Shown one piece after another: positions 2,328-61,277 of a DNA stretch of 64,000 nt. The stretch spans positions 450,172 through 514,171 of the forward strand of contig OY970358.1 of the NCBI GenBank assembly GCA_963718575.1, in the 5' to 3' direction. Position numbers and translations under genes: made by a program. The notes below the pieces were generated by a model. It was not told the origin of the DNA and did no database searches. It saw nothing but the letters and a program-made list of their open reading frames with translations. Numbering within the stretch: position 1 is the first letter of the stretch; every line of letters begins with the position of its first letter. Source of the stretch: an uncultured bacterium. GTDB taxonomy: Bacteria > Patescibacteriota > Minisyncoccia > UBA6257 > 2-01-FULL-56-20.

Positions 2328-3362
2328 CTATTTTATCTTGTGCCCCTTCCAAAGGTCAATATGCGGATTGAAAACGCCGGTTCTCTCCCTCACCCGCTTG
2401 ATCCATCGTGGATTTTTCACGTACCAGGTGATCGTTTCGTCGAGAGCGGAAATAAAAGAATATTTCGGACGCCATCCCAGTTCCCGCCGTATCTTCGACG
2501 CATCGATGGCATAGCGAAGATCATGGCCTGGACGGTCCGCCACGAAAACGATCCTGCTCCCACTCTCTTTGAATCGGGCGATGATCCGTTCTGCAATCTC
2601 GAGGTTGGTTCTCTCGTTATCGGCGCCGATATTATAAACCTCGCCGGGTTTTCCTTTGAGCAATATAAGTCGCAACGCTTCGCAATGATCGAGAACATGC
2701 AACCAATCGCGGACATTCCTGCCATTCCCGTAGAGCGGTAATGGTTTTCCCTCAATGGCCTGCGTGATAAAAAACGGGATTAACTTTTCCGGATACTGGT
2801 ATGGACCGTAATTATTTGAGGCGTGCGTGACGGTGACGGGAACCTTGAAGGTCTGAAAATAGGCGCGGCACAACATATCCCCTCCCGCTTTGGTCGCCGA
2901 ATACGGGATGTTTGGAGCGAACGGGGTCTCCTCGGTAAACAACTTTTTTGATGTTAACGGAAGGCTTCCATAGACCTCATCAGTTGATACCTGTAGATAG
3001 TTTTTAATATAGGAATTCGCCTTTACGAGTTCCAAAAAATTAAAAACACCCATGACATTCGTATCGATAAACTCCTTAGCTCCGACATGGATACTCCTAT
3101 CAACGTGCGTTTCCGCGGCAAAATTAATGATAAAATCTGGCTTGAACTTATTTACCGTGAGCGTGAGCTTTTTGTTATTGGTAATATCCCCCCGAACAAA
3201 AAGGTAATTTTTTTTCTTTTCGAGGCCGCGAAGATTATCCAAGTTTCCCGAATAGGTCAATTTGTCATAATTCAGGATCTTTATCTTCGGATCAGCCAGA
3301 AGAAGATGCCTGATAAAGTTCGACCCGATGAAACCTGCCCCGCCTGCGACGAATATTTTCAT
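2328..3362 (-). CDS. rfbB: dTDP-glucose 4,6-dehydratase (RmlB)
   Basis: MKIFVAGGAGFIGSNFIRHLL...YDKLTYSGNL, TDEVYG, YSATKAG: extended SDR dehydratase motifs. The ORF track extends the start to 3419, but MKIFV at 3362 fits the family N-terminus and avoids a 16-nt overlap with the upstream gene. Confidence 0.9.
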   Translation of the reverse strand: MKIFVAGGAGFIGSNFIRHLLLADPKIKILNYDKLTYSGNLDNLRGLEKKKNYLFVRGDITNNKKLTLTVNKFKPDFIINFAAETHVDRSIHVGAKEFIDTNVMGVFNFLELVKANSYIKNYLQVSTDEVYGSLPLTSKKLFTEETPFAPNIPYSATKAGGDMLCRAYFQTFKVPVTVTHASNNYGPYQYPEKLIPFFITQAIEGKPLPLYGNGRNVRDWLHVLDHCEALRLILLKGKPGEVYNIGADNERTNLEIAERIIARFKESGSRIVFVADRPGHDLRYAIDASKIRRELGWRPKYSFISALDETITWYVKNPRWIKRVRERTGVFNPHIDLWKGHKIK

Positions 3363-8428: not shown

Positions 8429-9925
8429 CTATCGGGCGTATTCCACCGCGCGCATCTCGCGGATCACATTTACTTTGATCTCACCAGGATATTTTAACTC
8501 TGATTGTATTTTATTTGCAATCTCCCGCGCAAGCTCAAGCGCGCGGAAGTCATCCACTTTTTCAGGGGTGACGAAGACGCGGAGTTCGCGGCCGGCGGCA
8601 ATCGCATAGGCGCTTTTTACGCCACTGAACTCGCCCGCGATTTTTTCAAGGTCGGCGAGGCGCTTTACGTAATTTTCAAGCGTACCGCGACGGGCGCCCG
8701 GGCGTGCCGCCGAGAGCACATCGGCGGCGGTCACCACATATGCTTCGGGCCGTGCGTACGGATAATCGTCGTGATGCGACTGCATTGCCTCGACGACCCG
8801 CTCATCTATATTATATTTGCGGAGCAGCTTCATGCCGAGCTCCACGTGCGTCCCCTCCACTTCGTGATCGATCGCTTTGCCGATGTCGTGAAGCAATGCA
8901 CCCTTCTTTGCCACTTCGGCGTTCAAGCCAAGCTCTCGCGCCATCATCTCGGCGATGTATGCCATCTCGGTCGAGTGCACCAGCACGTTCTGGCCGTAGC
9001 TCGTACGGAAGTGCAGGCGGCCGATCATCTGTAAAAGCTCCTTCGGAAGATCGAATACGCCAAGATCCTGCGCGGCGGCTTCGCCGATCTCCTGGGTGCG
9101 TTTCTGAAGGTCGGCCTTCGCCGTCTCCACGCTCTCTTCGATCTTCGCCGGCTGGATACGGCCGTCCTTCACGAGCCGTTCAAGCGCAAGGCGCGCCACT
9201 TCGCGGCGGAACGGGTCGAATGAGGAAATAATGATGCCGTCCGGTGCCTCGTCTATAATAAACTCCACGCCAGTGGCGCGCTCAAGCGCACGGATATTGC
9301 GACCCTCGCGGCCGATAATCTTGCCTTTCAACTCTTCGTCTTCCAAGTGAAAGATCGTCGTCGTCATTTCCGCAACATGCGAGCGCGCATAGCGTTGGAG
9401 TGCGATCGTGATGATGTCATTGGCCCGCTTCTCCACTTCTTCGCGATTCTCGCGATCGATCTTCTGGATCGATTGCGCAAGGTCATTTGAACGGTCCTCC
9501 TTTGCGCGGCGGAGGATCTCCTCTTTTGCCTCGGCGACAGAAAGGCTCCCTATCTTTTCAATGCGCGACTCGATTTCGTTCTCTTTTTTGGAAACCGTCT
9601 CTTCTTTTGCCTTTGCCGCGTCTTCGCGCGCGCGAAGCCTCGCCTCTTCTGAGGAAAGGTCGGTCAGTTTTTTATCCAGCGTCTCCTCGCGATGCAGCAC
9701 CCGCGCCTCAAGTGCATCGATCTCCTTGCGACGATCCTTCTCTTCGTTCTTTAACTCGACCAAAAGCGAGGCAGACTTCTCCTTTGCCTCTAAAATGATT
9801 TCTTTTGCTTTCGTCTCCGCTTCGGCGAGCTTATTTGCCCCCGAGTATCTGCGCGTGAGATATCCCACGGCTCCCCCGATCACCAAAAACACCACTGCGC
9901 TGAGCGCTATATAGGTTATTTCCAT
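8429..9925 (-). CDS. rny: Ribonuclease Y
   Basis: N-terminal TM helix, long coiled-coil (KEKSASLLVELKNEEKDRRKE...), KH domain (IIGREGRNIRALE) and HD domain (LLHDIGKAIDHEVEGTHVELG). 498 aa. Confidence 0.9.
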   Translation of the reverse strand: MEITYIALSAVVFLVIGGAVGYLTRRYSGANKLAEAETKAKEIILEAKEKSASLLVELKNEEKDRRKEIDALEARVLHREETLDKKLTDLSSEEARLRAREDAAKAKEETVSKKENEIESRIEKIGSLSVAEAKEEILRRAKEDRSNDLAQSIQKIDRENREEVEKRANDIITIALQRYARSHVAEMTTTIFHLEDEELKGKIIGREGRNIRALERATGVEFIIDEAPDGIIISSFDPFRREVARLALERLVKDGRIQPAKIEESVETAKADLQKRTQEIGEAAAQDLGVFDLPKELLQMIGRLHFRTSYGQNVLVHSTEMAYIAEMMARELGLNAEVAKKGALLHDIGKAIDHEVEGTHVELGMKLLRKYNIDERVVEAMQSHHDDYPYARPEAYVVTAADVLSAARPGARRGTLENYVKRLADLEKIAGEFSGVKSAYAIAAGRELRVFVTPEKVDDFRALELAREIANKIQSELKYPGEIKVNVIREMRAVEYAR

Positions 9926-10182
9926 AATAATTGTTAGTTCCCGAAAGTTTCATTGGTTGATTTAATGACTCTTTAATCGTCTTTATGATAGCGCAAAACA
10001 GGCGCTTTGGTCAAGGAAAAACGTGCGACGAGTTTAGATAGTTTTAATGCACTATTTTATAAACTCTCTGCGGGGGTGGCATAGTGCTGAATCTGGACTG
10101 ATAACCGAGATTCACGGGGCGCAAGTCTCCGCACCCCCGCATAAAAATGACAAATGGATATTAAATAAAGATTAAAAACTTT

Positions 10183-10210
10183 TTGACAGACTTTTCTGAA
10201 CTGTTATTAT
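10183..10210 (+). promoter_or_regulatory. Near-consensus sigma70 promoter (TTGACA -16- TATTAT)
   Basis: TTGACA 10183-10188, TATTAT 10205-10210. No protein ORF downstream before the terminator at 10258-10285. Confidence 0.5.
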
Positions 10211-10216
10211 AGTTAA

Positions 10217-10285
10217 GGTTGTCAGTCCAGATCATTCAGCGTTATGTTTGAATCGCAAAGAACCCGGCAACGGGTTTTTTGTTTT
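10217..10285 (+). ncRNA. Candidate small RNA (~70 nt) between a consensus promoter and an intrinsic terminator
   Basis: Predicted transcript gttgtcagtccagatcattcagcg... ends in hairpin aacccg-gcaa-cgggtt plus TTTTTTGTTTT. Segment 10222-10241 is complementary to 10093-10108 on the same strand. An upstream hairpin gcgggggtg/cacccccgc (10071-10143) suggests a longer structured region 10060-10285. Confidence 0.35.
10258..10285 (+). terminator. Rho-independent terminator (possibly bidirectional; A-tract upstream, T-tract downstream)
   Basis: aacccggcaacggg tttttt gtttt. Also lies 3' of the minus-strand ORF 10302..10619. Confidence 0.6.
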
Positions 10286-10301
10286 CTGGACGAGACTCGA
10301 A

Positions 10302-10619
10302 CTACTTTAGCTCTTCGTGATGAGATTTAGACTTTATGAAGTCAATCGTCATAAACCATACGAAGCCAACAATATTGAAAAGCGCGATAAATACGGCCAC
10401 ATCAAAAATTAAAGTCAGGGAACCAGGAATACACGATGCCCTATATACGAGATCCGAACAGGGATATCCTGGCGTGCATGATGGACTTGCTTCGCAGTAT
10501 TGTAAGAATGAAGAATTAGCGACATACGGCAAACTTGCACCCCAATAACCTATTGCCCCAATGACTAAGAGAGCTCCTTCAACCCATAGAAAACGCTTCC
10601 ATGAATGCCATACTTTCAT
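10302..10619 (-). CDS. Hypothetical small Cys-rich membrane protein
   Basis: 105 aa, two hydrophobic segments, AT-rich codon usage unlike its neighbours. Confidence 0.4.
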   Translation of the reverse strand: MKVWHSWKRFLWVEGALLVIGAIGYWGASLPYVANSSFLQYCEASPSCTPGYPCSDLVYRASCIPGSLTLIFDVAVFIALFNIVGFVWFMTIDFIKSKSHHEELK

Positions 10620-10712
10620 AAGTAGACTATAACATAATTAATCTTGTGCTCAGGACAGAATTTGGATTGATAAAAAGATTCCTTGCCCTCGTTTTTTAAA
10701 GAATACCCGGAG

Positions 10713-10833
10713 TTTGGCATAGCCATGCATCGTTTTGAAAGGTGTCTCGGAAGCGCGAAGGCGCTGAGAGCCAAGGCAGCTGGTCAGCAGACCAGAACGC
10801 CGTCCTTTCAAAACGATGCATGGCTATGCCAAA
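10713..10833. repeat. Hairpin element E1: perfect 30-bp inverted repeat (10713-10742 / 10804-10833) around a 61-nt loop carrying the motif TCTCGGAAGCGCGAAGGCGCTGAGAG
   Basis: Arms tttggcatagccatgcatcgttttgaaagg / cctttcaaaacgatgcatggctatgccaaa are exact reverse complements. The loop holds sub-hairpins gcgc-GAAG-gcgc and ctggtc-AGCA-gaccag. Located 27 nt upstream of gpmI. Confidence 0.8.
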
Positions 10834-10859
10834 CGCATCGTTTCATCTAAAATAAAGCA

Positions 10860-12395
10860 ATGGCAAAGAAAATGGCGATTCTCGTGGTGCTGGACGGATG
10901 GGGTATCGGCAAGGACTCATACATTAACCCCGTCTTCGTGGCAAAGCCGCCGACATTCCAATGGCTCGCCGAGAACTATCCCCTCACGAGCCTCCAGGCA
11001 TCGGGCATCTCCGTCGGGCTTCCGTGGGGCGAGACCGGCAACAGCGAGGTCGGCCACCTCACGCTCGGCGCCGGCAAGGTCGTCTATCAATATTATCCAA
11101 AGATCATGATGGCGATCCAAGACGGCACGTTCTTCGAAAATCCAGTGCTGAAAGCCGCCTTCGCGCACGCGCGCGATAATAATTCCGCGATCAACTTTGC
11201 GGGACTGCTCACCAAGGCGAATGTGCACGCATCGCTCGATCATCTCCACGCGCTTTTAAAAATGGCGCAGATGGAGAAGGTCACAAGAATAAATCTCCAT
11301 CTTTTCGCAGACGGAGAGGACAGTCCTCCGCATACTGTCGGCGACTTTCTTAAAGAGATCCCGAAGGAATATTTGGCGAGTCTCACAGGCCGCTATTATG
11401 CGATGGATCGCGAGGGCAATTGGCGCCTCACGCAGACCGCGTACGAAGCGATCCTCGGCAAGAGCGGCACGATCGTGGGCGACCCGACGGCGGCGATCGA
11501 GGCCACCTATAAGCACGATGCGACAGAGGAGTATCTTCCTGCACTCCGCTTTTCGGAGGATAAACACCTGAACGACGGCGACGCGCTCGTGTTCTTCAAT
11601 TATCGCGAAGACAGCATCCGCCAGCTGGCGTCCGCGTTCATCAAAAAAGATTTCTCTGAATTCCCCATCGTCCCATTCAACAATCTCTACGTCGCAACGC
11701 TCACCCACTACGATGACACATTCGATGCGCCGTTCGCATTCGCCGCCGACGGGGTCGAGCATCCGCTGGGACGAGTGATAAGCGATGCCGGCCTCACCCA
11801 GCTCCGCCTGGCCGAGACATATAAATATGCGCACGTCACCTACTTCTTCAACGGATTCCGCGAGGCGCCATTCAAAGGAGAATACCGCACGCTCGTGCCG
11901 TCCGCGTCCGGCCCGCATCCCGAAGAACATCCCGAGATGATGGCCGTCGCGATCACCGACCGCCTGATCGAAGCGATCGACAGCCGCGGATTCGATTTCA
12001 TCCTCGTCAACTATTCGAACGCCGACACGATGGGACACAGCGCCAACTTCAAAGCCGCGCTCGAAGCGATCAACGTGCTCGACACGCAGATCGCGCGCGT
12101 CATCAAAGCGGCGGACAATCCCGACACGCTCCTCTTCATCACCGCCGATCACGGCAACGTGGAAGAGATGATCAATGAACGTACCGGCGAACCCGAAAGC
12201 CAGCACGACCCCAACCCCGTGCCGTTCCACCTCGTCGTGCAGGAATATAAGGGAAGAAAGTTCATCAACGCCGACCGCCTCACCACCGAAACGCTCGGCT
12301 CCCTCGCCGACGTCGCCCCCACCATCCTCGCGCTCATGGGCATCCAAAAACCCGACGAGATGATCGGCACAAGTCTGTTGAATGGCCTGATATAG
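10860..12395 (+). CDS. gpmI: 2,3-bisphosphoglycerate-independent phosphoglycerate mutase
   Basis: MAKKMAILVVLDGWGIG...GLPWGETGNSEVGHLTLGAG...ITADHGN: iPGM metalloenzyme motifs. 511 aa. Confidence 0.9.
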   Translation: MAKKMAILVVLDGWGIGKDSYINPVFVAKPPTFQWLAENYPLTSLQASGISVGLPWGETGNSEVGHLTLGAGKVVYQYYPKIMMAIQDGTFFENPVLKAAFAHARDNNSAINFAGLLTKANVHASLDHLHALLKMAQMEKVTRINLHLFADGEDSPPHTVGDFLKEIPKEYLASLTGRYYAMDREGNWRLTQTAYEAILGKSGTIVGDPTAAIEATYKHDATEEYLPALRFSEDKHLNDGDALVFFNYREDSIRQLASAFIKKDFSEFPIVPFNNLYVATLTHYDDTFDAPFAFAADGVEHPLGRVISDAGLTQLRLAETYKYAHVTYFFNGFREAPFKGEYRTLVPSASGPHPEEHPEMMAVAITDRLIEAIDSRGFDFILVNYSNADTMGHSANFKAALEAINVLDTQIARVIKAADNPDTLLFITADHGNVEEMINERTGEPESQHDPNPVPFHLVVQEYKGRKFINADRLTTETLGSLADVAPTILALMGIQKPDEMIGTSLLNGLI

Positions 12396-13090: not shown

Positions 13091-13363
13091 AAAGAATCCC
13101 CAGAACGAACATGGTATATATATATTATTTTTTTCTCATATTTTTGTAATATTTTTCCAAAAGAAAAAATTAAAATCGCAACCATTCCGGAAGCCCAAAA
13201 CCACCAAGGAATAATTTCTAAATGCATAGAAAAGCGAGAATTAATCTCTTTGTCAGAAAAAGCATTCTATAAATCTTAACAGAATTTCCGCCCTTTCTAT
13301 ATATTTACCATACTTACCCTCTGTGTCCTGGGCAGAATTTGAGCCCAATCTCCTTATCACTCC

Positions 13364-13497
13364 CTTCGCTTTTGCAAGGGTGTGTCCTGAGGTTTTCGGG
13401 GCATTCCGGAGGTGCGAAGGCGCCGAGGCTTAGCGATTTTCCAGCAGGAAAATACGCGGCCCCGAAAACCTCAGGACACACCCTTGCAAAAGCGAAG
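13364..13497. repeat. Hairpin element E2: perfect 38-bp inverted repeat (13364-13401 / 13460-13497) around a 58-nt loop carrying TTCCGGAGGTGCGAAGGCGCCGAGGC
   Basis: Arms cttcgcttttgcaagggtgtgtcctgaggttttcgggg / reverse complement. The loop holds ggtgc-GAAG-gcgcc and ttttcc-AGCA-ggaaaa. Same architecture and loop motif as E1, with completely different stem sequences. Confidence 0.8.
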
Positions 13498-13511
13498 ATT
13501 GCTGATATAAT
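13484..13511 (+). promoter_or_regulatory. Strong sigma70-like promoter (TTGCAA -16- TATAAT) ending 7 nt before the rpsA ATG: predicted leaderless transcript
   Basis: TTGCAA 13484-13489 lies inside the right arm of E2. TATAAT 13506-13511. ATG at 13519 has no Shine-Dalgarno. Confidence 0.5.
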
Positions 13512-13518
13512 CATCCTC

Positions 13519-14613
13519 ATGCCACAAACAGAAGATCCGAAGGCGACCACCATCGCACAGGCGCTGAAAACCGAGATATCGACCACCGACTGGCCAAAGG
13601 AGGGCAGCGTTGTTGAAGTCACGCTTTTAAAGCGCCTCCCCCGCAAAGCCTACTTTGATATGGGCCGCTTTGGCACCGGCATCGTGTTCGGTGCAGAGAT
13701 CGCGAATGCGCGCGAAGCGTTGCGCACCCTAAAGCCCGGCGATTCGCTCCAGGCGAAGATCGTCGTCCTCGACGGCGAGGAAGGACACATCGAGCTCTCG
13801 CTCTCCGAAGCCGGCAAGCAAAAACTCTGGGCGCTCGCCAAGGATTATGCGGAATCGGGCGAAGTGATCAAGGCAAAGATCGTTGCCGCGAACGCGGGCG
13901 GGCTCATGACCGTCGTCGCGGATGACCTCAAGGCGTTCCTTCCCGTGTCTCAGCTTTCACTTGAACACTATCCGAAGGTTCCGGACGGCGACCGCATCAA
14001 GATCGCGGAAGAGTTGAAAAAGTTCGTCGGCCAGGAATTGAACGTCAAGATCATCGACGTCAACCCTCGCACGAATAAAGTGATCGTCTCCGAGCGCGAA
14101 GTGCTTTCCGCAAACGTCAAAGAATTGCTCGCCGCATACACGATCGGCCAGGTCATTGACGTGATGGTCTCCGGCACCGCCGACTTCGGCGTGTTCGTCC
14201 GCTTCACCGACAATCCGCAGATCGAGGGCATGATCCACATCTCCGAGCTGGATTACAAGTTGATCGACAACCCTAAGGAGCTCGTCAAAGTGAACGATCC
14301 GTTGAAAGCAAAAATTATTGATATCAAAGAAGGCCGCGTCTTCCTTTCGCTCAAAGCGCTCAAGGAAGATCCGTGGGTCAAAGCCGGCGACAAGTTCAAA
14401 CCGGGCGAGACCGTCCAGGGCAAAGTCTATAAGTTCAATCCGTTCGGCGCGGTCGTCGCGCTCGACGGCGACCTCCAAGGCATGGTGCACATCTCCGAAT
14501 TCGGCGGCCAGGACGAGATGAAGAAAGCGCTCACCGTCGGCGAGACCTATCCGTTCGTCATTGACACCGTAAAGCAGGAAGAGAAGCGGATCACGTTGAA
14601 GACGAAGAAATAA
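13519..14613 (+). CDS. rpsA: 30S ribosomal protein S1-like protein (four S1 domains, short form)
   Basis: Repeated S1 OB-fold units (GSVVEVTLLK...; GEVIKAKIVAANAGGLMTVV; GQVIDVMVSGTADFGVFVRF; GETVQGKVYKFNPFGAVVAL). The ORF track's start at 13339 would read through the E2 hairpin. MPQTED at 13519 is the likely start. Confidence 0.8.
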   Translation: MPQTEDPKATTIAQALKTEISTTDWPKEGSVVEVTLLKRLPRKAYFDMGRFGTGIVFGAEIANAREALRTLKPGDSLQAKIVVLDGEEGHIELSLSEAGKQKLWALAKDYAESGEVIKAKIVAANAGGLMTVVADDLKAFLPVSQLSLEHYPKVPDGDRIKIAEELKKFVGQELNVKIIDVNPRTNKVIVSEREVLSANVKELLAAYTIGQVIDVMVSGTADFGVFVRFTDNPQIEGMIHISELDYKLIDNPKELVKVNDPLKAKIIDIKEGRVFLSLKALKEDPWVKAGDKFKPGETVQGKVYKFNPFGAVVALDGDLQGMVHISEFGGQDEMKKALTVGETYPFVIDTVKQEEKRITLKTKK

Positions 14614-14631
14614 AAATGGCCCTTTGGGGCT

Positions 14632-14662
14632 ATTTTTTTATCTTTACTTTCGGGTGGAAATC
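14632..14662 (+). terminator. Weak intrinsic terminator candidate after rpsA
   Basis: gccc-tttg-gggc followed by TATTTTTTTAT. Short stem. Confidence 0.35.
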
Positions 14663-14692: not shown

Positions 14693-14763
14693 GCCGCGAT
14701 AGCTCAATGGTAGAGCACTCGCCTGAAGAGCGAGCTAAGTGAGTTCGATTCTCTCTCGCGGCA
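14693..14763 (+). tRNA. tRNA-Phe (anticodon GAA)
   Basis: Cloverleaf: acceptor GCCGCGA/TCGCGGC, D-arm GCTC-AATGGTA-GAGC, anticodon arm CTCGC-CTGAAGA-GCGAG, T-loop TTCGATT (one T.T mismatch in the T-stem), discriminator A, no encoded CCA. Confidence 0.8.
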
Positions 14764-16276
14764 CAAGAGTAGAAACTAGATTTTTTTCAGAAAAATTTTT
14801 GCGCGATGCGCACAGCGCATCGTTAGGTGGGGTGGGGGTAACGACGAGAGAACGGGAAGAAAGAAAGAGGGTCGAGCCGAAGAATTTTTTTGCCGAGAGT
14901 TTTTTCTGCGTGAGGGTGGGGGCAAGAGCGGTTTCCGTCAGATTTTCTGCGTCTTTTATCCACTCTCTTAGGGGTTCGAGCCAAGCGACCTGTCCTTTTT
15001 GCAAAGAGGCCATTTCTTCCTCCAGCCCCTTCTTGCGGAGAAGAAGCACCGACCTCTGTTCTTGGTATTGCTCTTTGCCGATGCTCTCCTCCAACCGGAC
15101 TTCGAGCAGGATGCTTAGCTTCTTCTCAATGGCCGATATTTCGCCTCTCGTCGCTTGGCTCGCGGCGGCGGACGACTGGATGGCCTCCTGTTCGTCCTTG
15201 TCCGCCATCCTGTTCAATTCCGCCGCCCAATCATGGGGCAAGGCGTATTGGGTCATAATATCTGAAAGCTCGGCTGACAACGCTTCCTCTCGGATGAAGG
15301 GTTGGGAGCAAGTGCCCTTCTTCTTCGTGCATCGGTAGTAGGTGTAGGTATGGACGTTCCCGTTCTTCTGATGCTTGGTCTTTGTTTCGGCCGTGATGCT
15401 CATGCCGCACTCGCCGCAACGCAACAGGCCGCAAAGAGGGCTTGCGTTATTCTCCGGCTCATGGCGCGGTCGGCTTCGCTCTTTCAAAACCTCCTGTACT
15501 TTATCAAAAAGTTTCTTCGAGATGAGCGGCGGATGCTTGCCCTCATATAACTCTCCGGCGTAGCGGAACATACCGATATAGAAGGGGTTGGTGAGAATGG
15601 CTTTCACTTGGTCGCGCTTCAACGGCTTGCCGCCTCCGCCACTCCATCGCTTCGTTGCTCTCGTCTTGATGCCGTGGTTGAAAAGAAACATCGACAAATC
15701 CTCCAAGTGGGATTTGTTCTCGGCGGTAAGTTCAAACAGCTTTACCAAAACAGGAGCTTCGCGCCTGTCCCTTACGACGAGTTTGCGGGCTACATCGTTC
15801 ATATATCCGGGCGGGGCAACCGAAGGATACTCGCCCCGTTTGGCTTTCTCGTGTAGGCCGCGCTTGGTATTCGCGCTCAAGTCGCGGACATATTGGGTAG
15901 CCGCCGCGAACTCAACCGACATGAGAAGCCCGTTGTCCTCGGACTGATAGTCGTGCTCATAGGTGCGGACTTGCTGTATCGTGCCGATTTGGTGAAGCCA
16001 TCGTATTTTCCCGTCGTCCCACGGATTGCGGGCTAACCTGTCGAGTTTCCAACATAAAATACCCTGCGCCTCGCCCCGTTCAATCCTCTCTATCATCTGA
16101 TTGAAGACGGGGCGGCCGGGTTTCTTCGCCGTCTCCTTCTCGGTGAACTCGTGAATGATGCTAAGTCCTTCTTGCTTGGCTAAGGCTCGCAACACGGAAA
16201 GTTGGTCTTCGATAGAGCGTATCTGCCTGTCTTCGGCTTCGGATGATTTGCGGGCGTAGAGGAAATATGAGGTCAT
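14735..16276 (-). CDS. Large serine recombinase (resolvase/invertase catalytic domain + recombinase domain + zinc ribbon)
   Basis: MTSYFLYARKSSEAEDRQIRSIEDQ (catalytic Ser region), ...KLDRLARN..., a Cys-rich CGLLRCGECG...YYRCTKKKGTC zinc ribbon and a C-terminal coiled coil. The 3' end overlaps the tRNA-Phe 3' end. Start taken at MTSYF (16276); ORF track start 16348. Confidence 0.85.
   Translation of the reverse strand: MTSYFLYARKSSEAEDRQIRSIEDQLSVLRALAKQEGLSIIHEFTEKETAKKPGRPVFNQMIERIERGEAQGILCWKLDRLARNPWDDGKIRWLHQIGTIQQVRTYEHDYQSEDNGLLMSVEFAAATQYVRDLSANTKRGLHEKAKRGEYPSVAPPGYMNDVARKLVVRDRREAPVLVKLFELTAENKSHLEDLSMFLFNHGIKTRATKRWSGGGGKPLKRDQVKAILTNPFYIGMFRYAGELYEGKHPPLISKKLFDKVQEVLKERSRPRHEPENNASPLCGLLRCGECGMSITAETKTKHQKNGNVHTYTYYRCTKKKGTCSQPFIREEALSAELSDIMTQYALPHDWAAELNRMADKDEQEAIQSSAAASQATRGEISAIEKKLSILLEVRLEESIGKEQYQEQRSVLLLRKKGLEEEMASLQKGQVAWLEPLREWIKDAENLTETALAPTLTQKKLSAKKFFGSTLFLSSRSLVVTPTPPNDALCASRKNFSEKNLVSTLVPRERIELT
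14762..14935. repeat. IR1-left: 174-bp arm, exact reverse complement of 19343-19516
   Basis: Checked base by base at both ends and in the middle. Begins 2 nt inside the 3' end of tRNA-Phe and contains the last ~57 codons of the serine recombinase. Confidence 0.9.
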
Positions 16277-16333
16277 GCAATAAGTGTATCCCATCTTGGG
16301 ATATGCCGCAAGAGGATATACGATTAAGTTGAA

Positions 16334-16546
16334 ATGACGAACGTTCAAGCAAAAGACTATAGGGATTTTCTAAAACGTCTCCGTAAAGCCCGTGAAGAAG
16401 TTGGGCTACTACAATCCGATGTCGCCAAGAAGCTTGGAAAACCACAATCTTATATTTCAAAAGTGGAATCGGGAGAACGGCGTATTGATTTCATAGAGTT
16501 GAAAAAACTTTCGATGATTTACAAGAAAAAACTAGATTTTTTCTAA
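16334..16546 (+). CDS. XRE-family helix-turn-helix transcriptional regulator (Cro/CI-like)
   Basis: 70 aa; LLQSDVAKKLGKPQSYISKVESGERRIDFIELKKL is a classic HTH_XRE. Divergent from the recombinase gene with a 57-bp shared control region. Confidence 0.8.
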   Translation: MTNVQAKDYRDFLKRLRKAREEVGLLQSDVAKKLGKPQSYISKVESGERRIDFIELKKLSMIYKKKLDFF

Positions 16547-16555
16547 AACCAATTC

Positions 16556-17386
16556 CTATACTCTTGCTCCCGTTAGGTTTGCGCTTTCGTATCGCCGCAC
16601 ACCCTTTCGCAAAACCCAAAGCGCGACGAAAAACCATGCCGCCGCCAACGCCCAGATTAAAGCGACTTCTGCGACGTTGATATTTTTAACTGCTTCTATA
16701 GGTAAGCCGCCAACGGCTATGCTTGGGATAATAAAAATAAAAATAAAACGAATTACTCCTTGGTACACCCCCGAAGGGTAAAGACTTGGGCCGACCAGTA
16801 TATCAAAGGCGTCGTCCGAAAGTTGCGCGGAATCGGGGAGATAAAACGAGATACAGGAAGCCATCAGTGCAAAATTTATAAATATCGTCGTTGCGGGGAT
16901 GATAAGTGAAATTAGCAAAATAATCTGCACAAGCGATGCGTGCGTTATGTAGGTATATATGGCAAAAAGAATAATACCAAATATCGTGTCCCCGATGGCA
17001 CTTGTCATTGTCGTTGTCGTCAAAATTCGCAAATAGAGATTTTTCGGCGTAAGAAGAATTGAGTCAAAAGTTCCATTATTAACAAAAGAATCCAAGTTGT
17101 TTGCGCCGTAACAAAACGAGAACGCAAGTCCGAAAGTTATTGCAACAAAACCTTGCAATCCTATAACCTCTACGCCCGACCAGCCGTTAATAGTCCCAAA
17201 GGCCTTAAAGAACAACAACCAAACCACCACGAACGCAAAATTATTTACAACCATTCCAACGACCTGCATGAGAAAGGAAAACCGAAGTTCCGCCGCCGCC
17301 ATGAGATTTATTTTAATATAGCGACCAGCAACGGAAAGCTCGGAAATAAATTTCTGAAAGGTCGTTTTTTTGGCAAATTTTCTCAT
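16556..17386 (-). CDS. ABC-2 family transporter permease
   Basis: 276 aa, six predicted TM helices, second of two paralogous permeases downstream of the ATPase. Confidence 0.7.
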   Translation of the reverse strand: MRKFAKKTTFQKFISELSVAGRYIKINLMAAAELRFSFLMQVVGMVVNNFAFVVVWLLFFKAFGTINGWSGVEVIGLQGFVAITFGLAFSFCYGANNLDSFVNNGTFDSILLTPKNLYLRILTTTTMTSAIGDTIFGIILFAIYTYITHASLVQIILLISLIIPATTIFINFALMASCISFYLPDSAQLSDDAFDILVGPSLYPSGVYQGVIRFIFIFIIPSIAVGGLPIEAVKNINVAEVALIWALAAAWFFVALWVLRKGVRRYESANLTGARV

Positions 17387-17390
17387 GGCA

Positions 17391-18221
17391 TTATCCTCCG
17401 TTTATCGACAATTTCCTTTGCGCCCTTTGGAAAACAATCTTGATGAGTATGAAAAAGAAAATTACCCAAAAAAGTTGGGCGACAAGCAATAACGGCCATT
17501 GCGACAAAAAGGTGGGGTTGAACATCTGCGTTGCAAACATTGGTGCACCAAAAGGGGTGAAATTAGCAAAAGTTTGAAAAGAAGACGGGAGAAGTGCGAG
17601 CGGAACATATGCTCCTCCAAAAATGAGAATCGCTTTATCAACAATCCAAAAAAACGGTCGGGAATCGTTAATCCACAAAGAAGGTAGTGCAATCAAAATA
17701 TAAAGCCCTGCCGACACCATCGTTCCGGCGGCCGCAAGGAGTAAGGCATATAAAAGACGCGGGAACGAGGCCGAGCTTGGAAAGCCGTGCGTAAAAAGTA
17801 ACAAAATCGGTATGACAACAGCCGCACTCACCAGAAAACTTAGTAACCCCTTGCCAAACTGTTCCCAAAATTTATAAGCGACATACGAATAAGGTTTGTT
17901 GATTTGCAATTCTAGCGTACCTTTCCGCGCTTCTTCGTCAATGGTTTTGAAAACACCTCTGAATTGCATATATAGGAGCAGGTGATAAACCGCGATACTC
18001 CAAACCGCTATCGCCGCATCAACGCCGTTTATGTCTTGGCCGATGTAATGGAAGGCGTAGGTATATATAGCAAGCAATATAAGAATACGAAACGGAACGA
18101 GAATAGCACTCGTTTGAAGTTTCTTGGGATAGTACAAGGTCTCCTTTATGGAAAGGCGATATATAAAAAGATATTTTGAGGCCTGACTAAGCCAGCTACG
18201 ATTAGCTATCCTTATGTTCAT
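17391..18221 (-). CDS. ABC-2 family transporter permease
   Basis: 276 aa, six predicted TM helices. Overlaps the ATPase gene end by 20 nt (translational coupling). Confidence 0.7.
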   Translation of the reverse strand: MNIRIANRSWLSQASKYLFIYRLSIKETLYYPKKLQTSAILVPFRILILLAIYTYAFHYIGQDINGVDAAIAVWSIAVYHLLLYMQFRGVFKTIDEEARKGTLELQINKPYSYVAYKFWEQFGKGLLSFLVSAAVVIPILLLFTHGFPSSASFPRLLYALLLAAAGTMVSAGLYILIALPSLWINDSRPFFWIVDKAILIFGGAYVPLALLPSSFQTFANFTPFGAPMFATQMFNPTFLSQWPLLLVAQLFWVIFFFILIKIVFQRAQRKLSINGG

Positions 18222-19194
18222 AAATTTTTCCGATAACCTCCTCTAGCGGCGGGTCTTCGATGGTAATGTCTTGAATATCCTTGCCGTGAATTACGTCTTT
18301 GAGCACCTCGTCTATCGAAGTGATGCTGGTATCAACAGTAAATTTGACTCCGCCACCTTTATTTTTGAGGATGTCGATGCCAGCAGGCATCTCTTTCACG
18401 TCAAGCTTATCTTTTTCCCCGAGAGCAATACGGACTACTTTCTTATTGAGATATTTTCTCTTGAGATTAGATGTCTTGTCATCGAAAATTATCTTGCCTT
18501 GATTGACGATGATTGTTCTGTCGCACAGCGTTTCAATATCGCCAGCGTCATGCGAAGTCAAAAAAATGGTGGTCTTGAGGTTTTTGTTTATGGATTTCAA
18601 ATTCTCTCGCAACTTTCGTTTTGCTACAATATCAAGCCCGATGGTCGGCTCATCAAGAAATACAATCGGCGGTTCGTGGATGAGTGCCACGGCGATTTCC
18701 GCCCTCATCCGTTGTCCCAACGATAACTTTCGCACGGGTTGGTCAAAAATCTCTGCAAGGTCAAAAAGCTCAATGAGTTTCTCTCGCTGTGTCGTATATT
18801 GTGTTGTTTCAACTTCGTATACCTTGGCGAACAAATCAAATGAATCCCTAATGGGGAGATTAAAAATCAACTGCGAACGCTGACCGAATACCGTACCGAT
18901 GTTAAGTGCTAATTCTTTTCTATCTTTTTGAGGATTGAGTCCAAGAACTGATGCGTTGCCGGAAGTTGGCGACAGTATACCCGTAAGCATCTTTATAGTC
19001 GTTGATTTACCCGCTCCATTCGGGCCGATAAATGCCAGCGACTCGCCTTCAAAAGCAGAGAATGAAATGTCATCAACTGCGGTTATAGAACGGGTTTGCG
19101 GCGAAAAAAGATTTTTAAGAAAACCACTCTTTTGGTCTTTCACGGGAAACACAAAAACTTTTGTAAGATGCCGCACTTCAACAGCTTTTTCCAT
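18202..19194 (-). CDS. ABC transporter ATP-binding protein
   Basis: Walker A GPNGAGKST, signature LSLGQRMR, Walker B IVFLDEPTIGLD, H-loop. 330 aa. Confidence 0.85.
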   Translation of the reverse strand: MEKAVEVRHLTKVFVFPVKDQKSGFLKNLFSPQTRSITAVDDISFSAFEGESLAFIGPNGAGKSTTIKMLTGILSPTSGNASVLGLNPQKDRKELALNIGTVFGQRSQLIFNLPIRDSFDLFAKVYEVETTQYTTQREKLIELFDLAEIFDQPVRKLSLGQRMRAEIAVALIHEPPIVFLDEPTIGLDIVAKRKLRENLKSINKNLKTTIFLTSHDAGDIETLCDRTIIVNQGKIIFDDKTSNLKRKYLNKKVVRIALGEKDKLDVKEMPAGIDILKNKGGGVKFTVDTSITSIDEVLKDVIHGKDIQDITIEDPPLEEVIGKIYEHKDS

Positions 19195-19342: not shown

Positions 19343-19516
19343 GAAACCGCTCTTGCCCCCACCCTCACGCAGAAAAAACTCTCGGCAAAAAAATTCTTCG
19401 GCTCGACCCTCTTTCTTTCTTCCCGTTCTCTCGTCGTTACCCCCACCCCACCTAACGATGCGCTGTGCGCATCGCGCAAAAATTTTTCTGAAAAAAATCT
19501 AGTTTCTACTCTTGTG
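19343..19516. repeat. IR1-right (partner of 14762-14935)
   Basis: Exact reverse complement of IR1-left. Confidence 0.9.
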
Positions 19517-19698
19517 AGTTTGTATCAGTCGGCTCGCAACCATTTTAGCCGAAATCAATGAGTTTTGACACCCCGCAGGGTAGTCGTTAGGGGGGTCGTT
19601 ACGCAACGACTACCCCTACCCACCCGAAGGGCTGATGGATACTGACTTTCTTCCTTCTCGCCGCCTCATTTTGGTTGCTGACATATATGACTTTTCGC
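19514..19698. repeat. IR2-left: ~185-bp arm, exact reverse complement of 20206-20389; abuts IR1-right with a 3-nt overlap (GTG)
   Basis: Boundaries and interior verified. Contains the internal palindrome gggtagtcgtt...aacgactaccc. Confidence 0.85.
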
Positions 19699-19937: not shown

Positions 19938-20228
19938 TCAGGCAAACCATTTTTCGATTTTGGTTTCCACTTCTAATCTTGGTTGCGCGAAACGCTCTCG
20001 TGATACCCGTATGACATTCTCCATTGTTGCCTCGTCGCCGTTCAAGGCGATGGGCGGGAGCGTTTCCGCCGTGAATGGCTTGCTCCGCTTCCCGTCTATC
20101 ATCAATTTTGTATAAAATTGGTAGTTCTCCGTATGCCCCATGTCCTCGCTCCCGAACTCCGGCTTGAACTCCTCCGCAAGCTCTTTGGCGTCCAACGAGC
20201 CGACCCGAAAAGTCATATATGTCAGCAA
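19938..20228 (-). CDS. Hypothetical protein (96 aa) in the ~0.5-kb unique core between the IR2 arms
   Basis: ORF mostly in unique sequence 19699-20205. No motif recognised. ORFs 19635..19868(+) and 19906..20268(-) start with the same residues because they start inside the two IR2 arms. Confidence 0.3.
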   Translation of the reverse strand: MLTYMTFRVGSLDAKELAEEFKPEFGSEDMGHTENYQFYTKLMIDGKRSKPFTAETLPPIALNGDEATMENVIRVSRERFAQPRLEVETKIEKWFA

Positions 20229-20389
20229 CCAAAATGAGGCGGCGAGAAGGAAGAAAGTCAGTATCCATCAGCCCTTCGGGTGGGTAGGGGTAGTCGTTGC
20301 GTAACGACCCCCCTAACGACTACCCTGCGGGGTGTCAAAACTCATTGATTTCGGCTAAAATGGTTGCGAGCCGACTGATACAAACTCAC
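20206..20389. repeat. IR2-right (partner of 19514-19698)
   Basis: Exact reverse complement of IR2-left. Confidence 0.85.
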
Positions 20390-20805
20390 CACCGTAATAA
20401 TCTTCGGTATAATTAAAAATGGAAATTCTGGATAAAACGATAGGAGCGGAATGGATCGAAGCCATGATTGGTTATATAAAGACCCATCGGTCAAAGTAAG
20501 AGTTCATTGACGTTCTTGGAGCTCCGCAAAACTCTCTCGAAGCAACGAACGTCGAGTTAAAACCAAAGAATCCTGCCATCAATTCGATCGTCCTCTCATC
20601 GAACGCGATCACCCTCAATATGATCCCGAAAAAATTTCACCGGGGAGAAAACGCTTCGAACCAAGATAACCGCATCACCGCTTATCGCACGGAAGTTGAG
20701 GACGTCACCATTCAATCGATCATACACCTTGGGATTTTCCCTCCGAGCGGTTTCGTTGACGAAGTGGATATCCTCTTTTATTAGCCGAACATTTATTTTT
20801 TTGTG

Positions 20806-59411: not shown

Positions 59412-60392
59412 CTATAACAGAAAGTGGACAATAAGCTGGAAGATCGCGAGTCCGGAGATCCCTATGATGGCCAGGTACGGGAGCATCGCAGCTGCCCAAT
59501 TCTTCTGTACCGGAGCCGCCGCAGGCGCCGTCGGCGTATATTCTTCGACACGCGTGTTCCCGGCCATATCTATGGCACGCACCGCGATGACATCGTTCAG
59601 ACTTTGATCCTGAATGAGATAGGGGCTTATCGCACGGATCCAGTTCCACTGATTCTGTGGGGTGTTCAGTTGTGAAGGCGGTACTTCAGCCACTTCATAA
59701 TGATCGATCCCCGTCTGCTTATCCACCGTCGAGAAGATGGCGAACCATTGGCCGTTGAAGAGCGACGGGTCATGATACACTCCCACAGTGAAAGGTTCGG
59801 GCGGCGTCGTGTCGTTCTGGATCGCCTCCTGCATCGCGTCCACTGAAACATAACTTCCTTTCAGCATTTGAGGAGTATAGGTTGCGGTTGCGGTCTGCAG
59901 CGCCGCGGGAGTTCCCAGTCCGTCGTTCAATATCGCCTGCGTGCTGCTGAGGAAAGAAAGATGCGCAGCCTGGAACAGTGTTGAGGTTGCTAGGGGAGTG
60001 GATGAGGTCGGGAATTTGAAATATATCGTGGCAAGCTGATTGCTCAAGCTCGGATCGCCGGCCACGCGCCCGCAATATCCGCCGGGCAATCCACCTACGA
60101 AAGAAATAACTCCGTATGATGAATATATCGTAGGCTGTTTTACCCACAGCGTGAGAATCGAATCGCCGTCACTTACGCCGACCGCCTGGAGTATATTGGC
60201 AGGATAAGCAAGGTCAACCTGAGCGGCGTTGATGCACTGACCCTGGTTGTCTAAGCGGACATTAACCGCGAACGTGACCCCCGGCGGATACTTTCCCGTC
60301 GCCGGATCCAGATAGATCTGGGCGGCATGAGCAAGTAAGGGAACCGCAAATATGGAAAGTATAAAACTGAAACCAGCCAGATATTTTTTCAT
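59412..60392 (-). CDS. Cohesin-like surface protein with C-terminal TM anchor
   Basis: Signal peptide. IYLDPATGKYPPGVTFAVNVRLDNQGQCINAAQVDLAYPANILQAVGVSDGDSILTLW...LATIYFKF follows the cohesin pattern. C-terminal helix AAMLPYLAIIGISGLAIFQLIV. Confidence 0.45.
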   Translation of the reverse strand: MKKYLAGFSFILSIFAVPLLAHAAQIYLDPATGKYPPGVTFAVNVRLDNQGQCINAAQVDLAYPANILQAVGVSDGDSILTLWVKQPTIYSSYGVISFVGGLPGGYCGRVAGDPSLSNQLATIYFKFPTSSTPLATSTLFQAAHLSFLSSTQAILNDGLGTPAALQTATATYTPQMLKGSYVSVDAMQEAIQNDTTPPEPFTVGVYHDPSLFNGQWFAIFSTVDKQTGIDHYEVAEVPPSQLNTPQNQWNWIRAISPYLIQDQSLNDVIAVRAIDMAGNTRVEEYTPTAPAAAPVQKNWAAAMLPYLAIIGISGLAIFQLIVHFLL

Positions 60393-60438
60393 CTATAAAC
60401 ATAAGTATAGCACGGCAACTACGATATTTGAGAAAACG

Positions 60439-60510
60439 TCCGCCCGGTAGGATTCGAACCTACGACCAGTCGTGTATAAGACGACGGCTCTACCACTGAG
60501 CTACAGGCGG
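60439..60510 (-). tRNA. tRNA with anticodon TAT (reads AUA; tRNA-Ile(UAU))
   Basis: Reverse complement: acceptor CCGCCTG/CGGGCGG (one T.G), D-arm GCTC-AGTGGTA-GAGC, anticodon arm GTCGT-CTTATAC-ACGAC (U33, A37), T-arm GTAGG-TTCGAAT-CCTAC, discriminator A. Confidence 0.7.
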
Positions 60511-60526
60511 AAACTTATTAATCTTT

Positions 60527-60686
60527 GGAATCCAGCAGCCTGCACTGCTTTGAAGGGCGTCTCTCGGAGCCGCGAAGGCGGGTCCCGCCCAAGGGGCGGG
60601 CAAGCCAGGTTGCGCGTAAGCGCTCCGAGGCGCGAACCCCGTGGCTCAACGCCGCACCCACGAAGTAGCGCGGACTACTGATTCCC
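60527..60686. repeat. Hairpin element E3: degenerate relative of E1/E2 carrying TCTCGGAGCCGCGAAGGCGGG plus GC-rich sub-hairpins
   Basis: Shares the core TCTCGGAR..GCGAAGGCG and a CCAAGG box with E1. Outer inverted repeat only partial (ggaatccagcag... / ...ctactgattcc). Internal hairpins cccgcc-caagg-ggcggg and gcgc-GTAA-gcgc. Confidence 0.45.
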
Positions 60687-61277
60687 CTTCTCTATAGTAT
60701 CAAACTGGTCCATTGCCTGCCCAGCCTGCGCATTGAAGTTATTGATCGCATTCACGTCGGTGTTGATCTGATTCACAATTCCCGTCACCTCATCGTTTGG
60801 CACCGGCGTTCCGCTGAACCGAGATTGAAGCACGCCAAGAAGATGATCGAGGTCGTTGCTGTATGTGATGAGTTCGTTGATGACGGCAAGACGGCTCGAA
60901 ATCGATTCGAGCGCCGCTTGCTGTGCGGACGGCGAAGTGATGTCCGGAAGAGCACTCGTCATTTGGCTCACCTGCGCGGAAAGCTGGATCGCTTCGGCGC
61001 GCAACCCCGCGCTTTGGTTGATAAGGTCGGTCGTTGAAGCGAGAGCTGCCGAGTAATCGCCATCCTGATCGTCTTTATTGATTCCCTGAAGCTCGGCCGT
61101 GGACTGGTTGGAATTGTTGACGATTGTTTGGGCAATGATAGCGCCCTGCAGCCGCGCGGCAGTGAAGTCCGCCGGGACTTTGTTTTCCGCCCGCCAAAAC
61201 AGGACGAGACCATATCCCACAGCAATAAGGATGATAAAAGCCGCAATGATCTTTGTGCGACGAGAGAATGTGGGCAT
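60675..61277 (-). CDS. Membrane-anchored coiled-coil protein (200 aa)
   Basis: N-terminal TM helix IIAAFIILIAVGYGLVLFW, then a Gln/Ala/Asn-rich helical region. Confidence 0.45.
   Translation of the reverse strand: MPTFSRRTKIIAAFIILIAVGYGLVLFWRAENKVPADFTAARLQGAIIAQTIVNNSNQSTAELQGINKDDQDGDYSAALASTTDLINQSAGLRAEAIQLSAQVSQMTSALPDITSPSAQQAALESISSRLAVINELITYSNDLDHLLGVLQSRFSGTPVPNDEVTGIVNQINTDVNAINNFNAQAGQAMDQFDTIEKGNQ

Follow-up and report, generated by a model that had tools for sequence, protein, structure and literature searches.

A dispersed palindromic repeat with a conserved three-way-junction apex as the probable origin of the hairpin at the rpsA promoter of a Paceibacterota genome

We analysed a 64,000-nt stretch of contig OY970358.1 (the window), in which a long hairpin, E2, lies directly ahead of rpsA, the gene for ribosomal protein S1, and a second one, E1, ahead of gpmI; positions are those of the whole window unless a relative is named. 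Our results point to a reading that we consider probable: E2 would be a copy of a dispersed repeat, together with E1 and a decayed copy at 60548, its stem would be maintained at the DNA level by template switching, it would be a bystander of the promoter, and the rpsA mRNA would be leaderless. The family itself is a dispersed palindromic repeat confined to a subclade of the Paceibacterota, within the Candidate Phyla Radiation (CPR); its apex is under both structural and sequence constraint, and it has apparently not been described before. The basal stems are locus-specific and almost purely Watson-Crick, their mismatches are symmetric between the strands, and most copies abut the 3′ ends of tRNAs or genes in one orientation. 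At rpsA, as judged from the aligned loci of relatives, the promoter geometry expected of a leaderless transcript is conserved independently of the hairpin, whose loss leaves the promoter unchanged.

E2 and the gene that follows it comprise these parts:
13364..13402, forward strand: left arm of E2, 39 nt (sequence read and repeat finder)
13403..13458, forward strand: apical three-way-junction domain of E2 (RNA and DNA folds, covariance model R1, covariation)
13459..13497, forward strand: right arm of E2, 39 nt, holding the native rpsA −35 hexamer
13484..13511, forward strand: predicted rpsA promoter, with −35 TTGCAA at 13484-13489, a 16-nt spacer, TG at 13503-13504 and TATAAT at 13506-13511 (consensus scan, 10/12)
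13519..14613, forward strand: rpsA, a 364-aa four-domain S1 protein (open reading frame (ORF), Pfam S1 7.9e-37, orthologues)

By sequence reading and the repeat finder, the two arms of E2 are 100% complementary over 39 nt each and enclose 56 nt. An earlier reading of the window, made from the sequence alone, had recognised the perfect stem and counted it one base pair short, as 38 bp with a 58-nt loop. The arm has no second copy in the window, where none is expected by chance. Folding energies of the single strand were −113.4 kcal/mol with RNA parameters (z = −12.4) and −64.4 kcal/mol with DNA parameters (z = −14). The hairpin is genuine and lies well outside chance expectation. The outer part of the left arm (CTTCGCTTTTGCAAGG) repeats the −35 region of rpsA in inverted orientation, its inner part (TTTTCGGGGC) belongs to the semi-conserved inner stem of the repeat family, and the right arm is directly followed by ATTGCTGATATAAT. 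According to the folds, the "loop" is not unstructured and forms two small hairpins that make a three-way junction with the long stem, namely P2 at 13406-13428 (CC/GG, an internal loop GGA/GA, and GGTGC-GAAG-GCGCC) and P3 at 13433-13457 (GCG/CGC, a bulge, and TTTTCC-AGCA-GGAAAA). An intrinsic terminator is defined by a GC-rich hairpin followed by a T tract downstream of a gene; E2 does not have this form and lies in a divergent promoter region.

Two further copies were found in the window:
10712..10834, forward strand: E1, the second full copy, with perfect arms at 10712-10742 and 10804-10834 and its apical domain at 10743-10803
60548..60660, forward strand: a third, rearranged copy beside tRNA-Ile (R1 match 60548-60649, 14.7 bits, E=0.008)

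The apices of E1 and E2 fold alike and their stems are unrelated: P2 of E1 reads AGCGC-GAAG-GCGCT and its P3 CTGGTC-AGCA-GACCAG, so that the GAAG and AGCA loops are those of E2 on differently paired helices. The position of the gpmI promoter also corresponds, with a −35 ATGCCA at 10826-10831 inside the right arm of E1 and a −10 TAAAAT at 10848-10853, 6 nt before the ATG at 10860. The sequence-only reading had proposed this shared geometry and loop motif, and both the coordinates and the fold were borne out. When the window was scanned with R1, a covariance model that we built from the apex alignment, exactly two strong copies were recovered, E1 (93.5 bits, E=3.7e-31) and E2 (66.6 bits, E=1.7e-21, span 13390-13472). 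An orthologous copy of E1 is present in the relative L139. The third copy keeps the 5′ half (TTTGAAGGGCGTCTCTCGGAGCCGCGAAGGCGG) and the 3′ end (AACGCCGCACCC) of the family, with extra hairpins between them and no long stem; its region (60380-60800) matched no Rfam family.

Upstream of both hairpins (10645-10670 for E1, 13322-13347 for E2) we observed a common block of ~25-36 nt, TGTGnnCnGGRCAGAATTTGR, which was otherwise found only upstream of rpsA in L010 and L097 and which may be a divergent-promoter or regulator site. The corresponding upstream sequence GGRCAGAATTTG was considered as a part of the element and rejected, as it occurs only in the window and in the rpsA region of one relative.

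The extent of the family was determined in the rpsA loci of 66 related genomes and in metagenome contigs, the latter scanned with a refined pattern derived from known copies. The metagenome scan returned at least 118 loci, mostly from peat or bog samples, and relatives and metagenomes together gave at least 135 instances of the motif, with a flanking stem in at least 123 (median 31 bp among the matches listed) that was perfect in at least 36; three matches in GC-rich contigs were false positives. In the loci of relatives, the motif search also revealed copies downstream of rpsA, downstream of tuf and beside tRNAs, and R1 detected 15 copies over 816 kb from the 66 relatives, falling in a subclade with S1 identity of at least ~81% plus one outlier. 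Copies occur at a density of ~1 per 10-30 kb. No match to the refined pattern was found in viral contigs, and six viral matches of the first scan were discarded, since they represent a single phage coding sequence without pairing that matched by chance. At the gathering threshold of Rfam 15 only tRNAs passed in the window, and with E-values up to 10 E1 and E2 gave only noise (mir-5882, 43 bits against a gathering value of 95; DUF3268, 16 against 65). Resemblances to the hammerhead, signal recognition particle (SRP) RNA, 5S RNA, tRNA-like structures, the K-turn and the inverted terminal repeat (ITR) of adeno-associated virus (AAV) were tried and rejected, as the defining motifs of each are lacking; the SRP-like and 5S-like strings are short matches without Rfam support. 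In the literature we found no prior description of such elements in CPR bacteria.

Each copy consists of a conserved apex of ~60 nt, a semi-conserved inner stem and a basal stem of 15-30 bp of local sequence. Among the matches listed, the alignment of 107 distinct apices had 91.8% of its cells paired, and double-sided changes numbered 453, as compared with 128±12 in shuffles and 29-97 in slid registers. In the consensus, P1 is the long stem, P2 a 3-bp helix followed by an internal loop (5′-GGA/3′-GA), 5-6 bp and a GNAG loop, and P3 a GGCG/CGCC helix with an invariant bulged A, 6-7 bp and an AGCA loop. In the same set the unpaired nucleotides of the apex are conserved while the helices covary.

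Below the apex, the inner 9-10 bp of the stem are semi-conserved (YTTTTGARRGG / CCYYTCAAAAR) and the outer 15-30 bp are specific to the locus. Sharing of stem sequence was limited to orthologous loci, which made up 36 of the 41 pairs with a common 11-mer, the rest being of low complexity or diverged orthologues; the possibility that stems travel with the element between loci was therefore rejected. In the orthologous loci L148, L190 and L138 as compared with L177, many stem positions differ, with both arms changed together. A census of the 81 distinct stems among the matches listed gave 2,324 pairs, of which 2281 (98.1%) were Watson-Crick; of the mismatches, the core strand showed 18 as G·T and the opposite strand 17 (A·C on the core strand), and 8 were of transversion type. 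P2 and P3 behaved in the same way (1921 Watson-Crick pairs, 18 G·U and 10 A·C, again among the matches listed), and compensatory changes are abundant, yet in stems and apex alike G·U is roughly as infrequent as A·C. Selection on an RNA fold would be expected to permit G·U, though not A·C, on the strand that is transcribed, so that the strand symmetry of the mismatches argues for pairing that is kept at the DNA level. This also gives reason for caution, as covariation alone can arise from a mutational mechanism and not from selection on RNA.

Template switching can create a perfect stem in one event, repair it and expand inverted repeats at promoters (PMC8794818, PMC5941160, PMC13100816), and from the pattern of pairing we infer that it creates, extends and keeps perfect the stems described here. 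Arms start within the 3′ ends of tRNAs, stop codons are concentrated from −23 to +8 relative to the end of the stem (~40 of 93 cases among the matches listed), and −35 boxes lie inside an arm at rpsA, gpmI, L107 and L179. Relatives without the element at rpsA carry the right-arm sequence (cccTTGCAAAAGCGG) and lack its inverted copy, suggesting that copying ran from the promoter side to the free side. The only version of the process that our data support is one in which one arm is native and the other is its inverted copy; stems as patchworks of nearby flanks are unsupported, and a match of TGTGTCCTG near E2 is probably due to chance. With 98% Watson-Crick pairs, symmetric mismatches and arms that absorb stop codons, tRNA ends and −35 boxes, the family offers a natural case for template switching at the DNA level.

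Perfect inverted repeats are not restricted to this apex. Over 1.49 Mb we counted 157 of them with arms of at least 16 nt, 89 with the apex and 68 without, the latter including no fewer than six further cassettes that recur at the apex as well as several cases with a tRNA gene there. Because of these hairpins, and of two repeats of 174 and 191 nt in the window (described below), a general tendency to perfect inverted repeats is indicated.

The other apical cassettes stand on long, perfect, locus-specific stems, for example the 19-nt TCCAGGCAGATGACCGTTC, which we presume to resemble a stretch of Escherichia coli 4.5S RNA, and the 17-nt GTTGTGTCTGCACGGCA. In the tRNA cases, the genes lie at the apex of perfect repeats of 17-20 bp, where leader and tRNA 5′ end together form the arm that the trailer repeats in inverted form. 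The loci, in the numbering of each relative, include:
L038 9091-9151, L049 9095-9155, L107 11838-11908, L081 1920-1984; L015 9610-9678, L117 5756-5834: other cassettes
L048 13125-13228, L145 1052-1155, L107 5316-5452, L076 217-357: tRNA genes at the apex

To place E2 with respect to rpsA, we compared the gene and its promoter among relatives. The database holds 5,013 relatives of the S1 product, most of them 364 aa long and from Candidatus Paceibacterota / Minisyncoccia, and an exact look-up of the protein of the window returned no record. S1 proteins of CPR bacteria have three to four domains (PMC9297842). Since the N-terminus MPQTE(D/E)PK is common to the relatives, and the ATG at 13519 is the start in most orthologues, we take this codon to be the true start. 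The TATAAT box ends 7 nt before it and is of the extended type, and no GGAG, GAGG or AGGA was found upstream of the ATG; in this respect the sequence-only reading, which had described TTGCAA-16-TATAAT and the lack of a Shine-Dalgarno (SD) motif, was correct and is now supplemented by the TG. It had also proposed a comparison with related genomes, and this agreed: 33 orthologues (68-95% S1 identity) have an unambiguous start, and in 32 of them a −10 box that matches at no fewer than five of six positions ends 7-9 nt before it, the −35 is TTGCAA, TTGCCA or TTGCTA at 16-17 nt, and an SD-like motif is present in none (0/33). The rpsA promoter thus shows the features of a sigma-70-type leaderless start (spacing of 16-18 nt, a −10 ending ~6-9 nt before the start, and no SD), and the geometry part of the earlier claim of a leaderless rpsA mRNA stands, the leaderless start itself being a prediction.

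The same geometry was not special to the S1 gene, as had been supposed. A −10-like box ends 6-11 nt upstream of 13 of 50 putative starts in the window, where about one is expected, and SD-like motifs occur at 7 of the 50 against a background of 8%, which suggests that leaderless initiation may be genome-wide in this organism. Examples of such starts are:
2321, 3419, 8376, 10619, 10860, 16348, 19194, 20978, 38814: starts with a −10-like hexamer 6-11 nt upstream

The irony of a leaderless gene for the protein that recruits leadered mRNAs falls away, because the organism appears to start many genes in this manner. These apparently leaderless, SD-less starts fit the report that a subgroup of the Parcubacteria often lacks the anti-SD motif of 16S rRNA (PMC9297842). 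In the literature searched, only this loss of the anti-SD in part of the Parcubacteria was found, and no documentation of leaderless starts as the dominant mode in Paceibacterota. A promoter-to-ATG rule would be a concrete and testable aid to annotating CPR genomes.

The hairpin itself is present at some rpsA loci and absent from others, so that the comparison proposed in the sequence-only reading was answered in two ways. It lies upstream of rpsA in L007-L011, L097, L099 and L133, and L016, L024, L027 and L049 have an identical rpsA promoter and no hairpin. Intermediate states were also observed: L012, L020 and L021 retain apex fragments, and all that L018 (2366-2401) has around the −35 is a perfect palindrome of 16 bp closed by a 4-nt loop (TGTTTTTGCAAGGGCT tgcg AGCCCTTGCAAAAACA), to be read either as an empty hairpin site or as an element that has collapsed. 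In the P0003 lineage (93% S1 identity, ten independent contigs) only the right arm remains (GTCCTTTCGAGAGCAGTGCGCCCTTGCAAAAGCGGG), followed by the intact promoter and ATG, and because this lineage has lost the core and left arm and kept the promoter, the hairpin is dispensable at rpsA. Apart from the −35 segment, the arm sequences of relatives at rpsA could not be aligned. Taken together, the rpsA loci of relatives amount, on the sequences compared, to a natural deletion series.

A short canonical terminator follows the gene in the window and in several relatives:
14612..14637, forward strand: short canonical intrinsic terminator of rpsA, with an element copy at this position in L015 and L018

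In L015 and L018 the element is nested at the position of this terminator, with the A and T tracts kept. L027 has a decayed copy downstream of rpsA, and L038, L049 and L022 have long hairpins with other cassettes there. No empty long hairpins were found in the window. That every copy was inserted into a terminator already in place holds only in part: it fits L015 and L018, but among the matches listed, terminator-like outer arms (A-rich and T-rich) occur in 19 of 111 copies (~17%).

The recurrent neighbours of the family, called from N-terminal sequences and not by a family scan, encode EF-G, SSB, L11, RpoBC, AtpA, S13, S7, S4, DnaK, GyrA and RecA. Among the matches listed, to which the remaining counts of this paragraph refer, tRNAs make up 17% of the neighbours. 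The core strand is antisense to the gene at the 3′ ends of coding sequences (CDSs) in a ratio of 36:11 (p = 3.5e-4) and at tRNA 3′ ends in a ratio of 18:0 (p = 7.6e-6), and no orientation bias was seen at 5′ ends (9:11). E1 and E2 have the "sense" orientation and lie in divergent promoter regions, a minority context that holds ~10 of ~100 copies. That copies keep one orientation at the 3′ ends of tRNAs and genes points to a factor that would be worth finding.

Where an element follows tRNA-Arg or tRNA-Leu, we noted a further conserved hairpin on its far side, CCGGAAAATTT-CTGCTGA-AAATTTTCCGG; after it comes a 13-nt stretch that repeats the T-loop region of the tRNA in inverted form (GTTCGATTCC..), and ARAGORN called no tRNA here. 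Its positions are:
L019 ~9610-9700, reverse strand: tRNA-distal hairpin
L020 ~2821-2900, forward strand: tRNA-distal hairpin
L112, L154, L159, L160: tRNA-distal hairpin

On the reading that we favour, template switching (quasipalindrome correction) would overwrite the unconstrained flank of a copy with an inverted copy of the constrained flank. At rpsA the constrained flank would be the −35 region, so that the right arm would have come to hold the −35 and the left arm its inverted duplicate; the palindrome would have grown into the rpsA promoter, and E2 would be a bystander and not a regulator. The promoter TTGCAA-16-TGnTATAAT would give a leaderless or near-leaderless rpsA mRNA, as would those of many other genes in a genome where SD motifs are scarce. 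If E2 affected rpsA at all, this would be secondary, for example the blocking or processing of read-through from a promoter-like site upstream, which, if active, could transcribe through E2 into rpsA:
13276-13305, forward strand: promoter-like site TTAACA-18-TATATT upstream of E2 (consensus match only, 10/12)

The apex would probably be recognised in single-stranded form, as RNA or as single-stranded DNA (ssDNA), by a putative factor, and its commonest setting suggests a role at transcript 3′ ends.

Several observations weigh against this account. Unpaired nucleotides of the apex are strongly conserved even among old and diverged copies, and copies at 3′ ends keep one orientation; both facts imply some function or means of propagation, and if that function were RNA-based, E2 might matter more to rpsA than a bystander would. 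The inner stem and the core subtype at rpsA differ between the window and its nearest relatives, though four-fold sites of rpsA differ by only ~30%, and apex turnover or re-insertion could have occurred instead of simple vertical descent. Template switching is deduced here from the pattern of its putative products, and a direct test of one of its predictions, stem segments taken from neighbouring flanks, was negative (4 of 72, against 2.3±1.4 in the control). The core lies on the C-rich strand in a ratio of 26:10, so that its orientation fits transcription and replication alike. The bystander status of E2 and the leaderless or near-leaderless nature of the rpsA mRNA are both predictions. Peat and bog samples dominate the metagenome set, which was itself selected by a pattern built on known copies.

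Among the alternatives, a functional structured RNA has to be taken most seriously, and we regard it as possible, if clearly short of even odds. Here the common orientation, the reverse complement of the core, would be a 3′ trailer hairpin of tRNAs and highly expressed mRNAs, acting in termination, in 3′-end processing (for example as an RNase III substrate with a protein-binding cap) or in protection from exonucleases, and E1 and E2 would be 5′-proximal copies that insulate or process transcripts running into gpmI and rpsA. Such a role overlaps with the favoured reading and is compatible with it. The orientation bias at tRNA and CDS 3′ ends and its absence at 5′ ends, arms that start at or a few nucleotides from tRNA 3′ ends and stop codons, the replacement of the canonical rpsA terminator in L015 and L018 with its A/T tracts kept, the housekeeping, highly expressed neighbours, and conserved unpaired nucleotides on covarying helices all agree with it, and the site at 13276-13305 could supply a transcript of E2. 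Against this, there is no wobble signature on either strand (18 against 17 mismatches in the stems, 18 against 10 of ~2,000 pairs in the apex), which is unusual for a selected RNA fold, the T tract is confined to ~17% of copies, the direction of replication explains the orientation equally well, and the family has no Rfam relative. We hold with a similar degree of reserve a wider proposal, in which Paceibacterota would use a class of modules not described before, long perfect hairpins of local sequence that each bear one cassette of a conserved set, in our case the covarying three-way junction; these would mark, always in the same orientation, the 3′ ends of tRNAs and highly expressed genes and would be read by a dedicated putative factor as RNA 3′-end or processing signals or as ssDNA signals at the fork, their stems being constantly regenerated by template switching, and E1 and E2 would be instances captured at leaderless promoters.

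A non-autonomous mobile element seems to us unlikely, somewhat more so than a structured RNA. It would resemble the repetitive extragenic palindromic (REP) sequences and their hairpin-forming doublets (REPINs) or the palindrome-associated transposable elements (PATEs) derived from IS200/IS605, its ssDNA apex would be recognised by an HUH/tyrosine enzyme, and it would insert into hairpin loops or fork ssDNA, E2 being an insertion just upstream of the rpsA −35. The high copy number, the presence, absence and decay of copies at orthologous sites, the two small conserved hairpins that resemble transposon ends, an orientation bias as expected of strand-specific ssDNA transposition, the placing of the element within the plain terminator hairpin of relatives in L015 and L018, and the several other apical-module families of the same architecture are consistent with mobility. 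However, the boundaries carry none of its marks, with 0 target-site duplications (TSDs; direct repeats of at least 4 nt), no boundary consensus or conserved bases, GTAG at 2 boundaries against ~2.2 expected by chance and TTAC at 3 of 81; no transposase-like cluster was seen among 538 ORFs near elements; copies within a genome are diverged and many sites are orthologous across species, which argues against recent bursts; and the outer inverted repeats are locus-specific, unlike the terminal repeats of miniature inverted-repeat transposable elements (MITEs) or the arms of REPINs. The sequence-only reading had instead seen in the palindrome an operator, cruciform or roadblock, and control of a leaderless S1 mRNA by such a device, specific to rpsA, now appears very improbable. 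The −35 does lie inside the right arm, where extrusion or protein binding could occlude it, and several relatives have the hairpin at the same place; the same apex, however, stands at more than 120 unrelated loci, mostly 3′ ends, the arms are unconserved outside the −35, and many relatives as well as the right-arm-only lineage keep the promoter without the hairpin. Moreover, from what is established on cruciform kinetics, a structured spacer of 56 nt should make extrusion from duplex DNA unfavourable. Finally, an assembly or amplification artefact such as a fold-back chimera is barely conceivable: chimeras from multiple displacement amplification or library preparation can give long perfect inverted repeats, and the window has another of 174 nt, but orthologous copies with different compensating stems occur in many independent NCBI, ENA and JGI assemblies, and ten independent contigs are identical base for base at a related locus.

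Other structures in the window were also recorded. A 174-nt inverted repeat of 100% identity (14762-14935 / 19343-19516), starting at the last bases of tRNA-Phe, brackets 4.4 kb with a large serine recombinase (14735-16348, reverse strand) and an ABC-2 transporter (16556-19194, reverse strand). The segment could be an invertible or integrated island; in relatives, rpsA and tRNA-Phe run on towards folD without it. Adjoining this repeat is a second one of 191 nt and 98% identity (19507-19697 / 20206-20396), which encloses 508 nt and holds in each arm its own hairpin (GGGTAGTCGTT...AACGACTACCC). A 375-nt intergenic region at 9926-10301, between the RNase Y gene and a 105-aa ORF, holds inverted repeats in a nested arrangement (10056-10154 and 10091-10232) and is a candidate for an RNA that lacks annotation; the surrounding 9900-10330 had no match in Rfam.

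We compared the family with known systems in respect of both its parts and its setting. Parvovirus ITRs, including those of AAV, lie at genome termini and are bound and nicked by Rep. Their T shape, a long stem capped by two small hairpins, is similar to that of the family; unlike them, the family shows no sign of termini, Rep binding elements or flip/flop isomers, and its orientation is conserved among orthologues. Integron attC sites carry R″/R′ core sites (RYYYAAC ... GTTRRRY) at either end of an imperfect hairpin and stand at the 3′ ends of cassettes, whereas here AAC...GTT was seen at the arm ends of only 7 of 81 stems and the neighbours are housekeeping genes. PATEs are recognised by subterminal hairpins and a conserved 4-5-nt target or cleavage motif (for example TTAC) at the left end, in contrast to the 3 of 81 boundaries found here. 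Operator palindromes are conserved in sequence within one regulon, whereas E2 has arms that cannot be aligned and an apex shared with unrelated loci. Many copies occupy exact terminator positions, as those nested in the rpsA terminator do, and differ from intrinsic terminators in their stems of 25-39 bp, a structured apex of 60 nt, the rarity of T tracts and, for E1 and E2, their place in divergent promoter regions, in which there is no transcript to terminate. As regards initiation, the Actinobacteria, Deinococcus-Thermus and many archaea, in which leaderless mRNAs dominate, likewise have a −10 box 6-9 nt before the start and no SD, genome-wide.

Quasipalindrome template switching (the Ripley and Lovett models; Mönttinen and Löytynoja 2022, PMC8794818) explains the perfect stems, the concerted change of arms and their outward expansion, also described for promoter-borne inverted repeats (PMC13100816). 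It is a process of mutation, not a family of elements, and it leaves the conserved asymmetric apex and the orientation bias unexplained. Bacterial MITEs (Correia/CREE, ERIC, RUP, BOX) are, like the family, short, non-coding, interspersed and intergenic, may contain or overlap promoter elements and form long hairpins, but have conserved terminal inverted repeats and TSDs, neither of which is found here, as the arms differ at each locus. The REP, bacterial interspersed mosaic element (BIME) and REPIN sequences of Proteobacteria, associated with the REP-associated tyrosine transposase (RAYT), are likewise high-copy, extragenic, hairpin-forming and concentrated at gene 3′ ends, and in REP and REPIN sequences, too, conserved motifs persist for long in many copies per genome, with a possible role at mRNA 3′ ends. 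In those systems the conserved repeat forms the arms and is accompanied by a 5′ GTAG and a RAYT gene; around the family GTAG is at chance level and no RAYT-like gene was seen among the 538 ORFs. Here the arms are local and the apex is conserved, the reverse of what is found in REP elements and MITEs.

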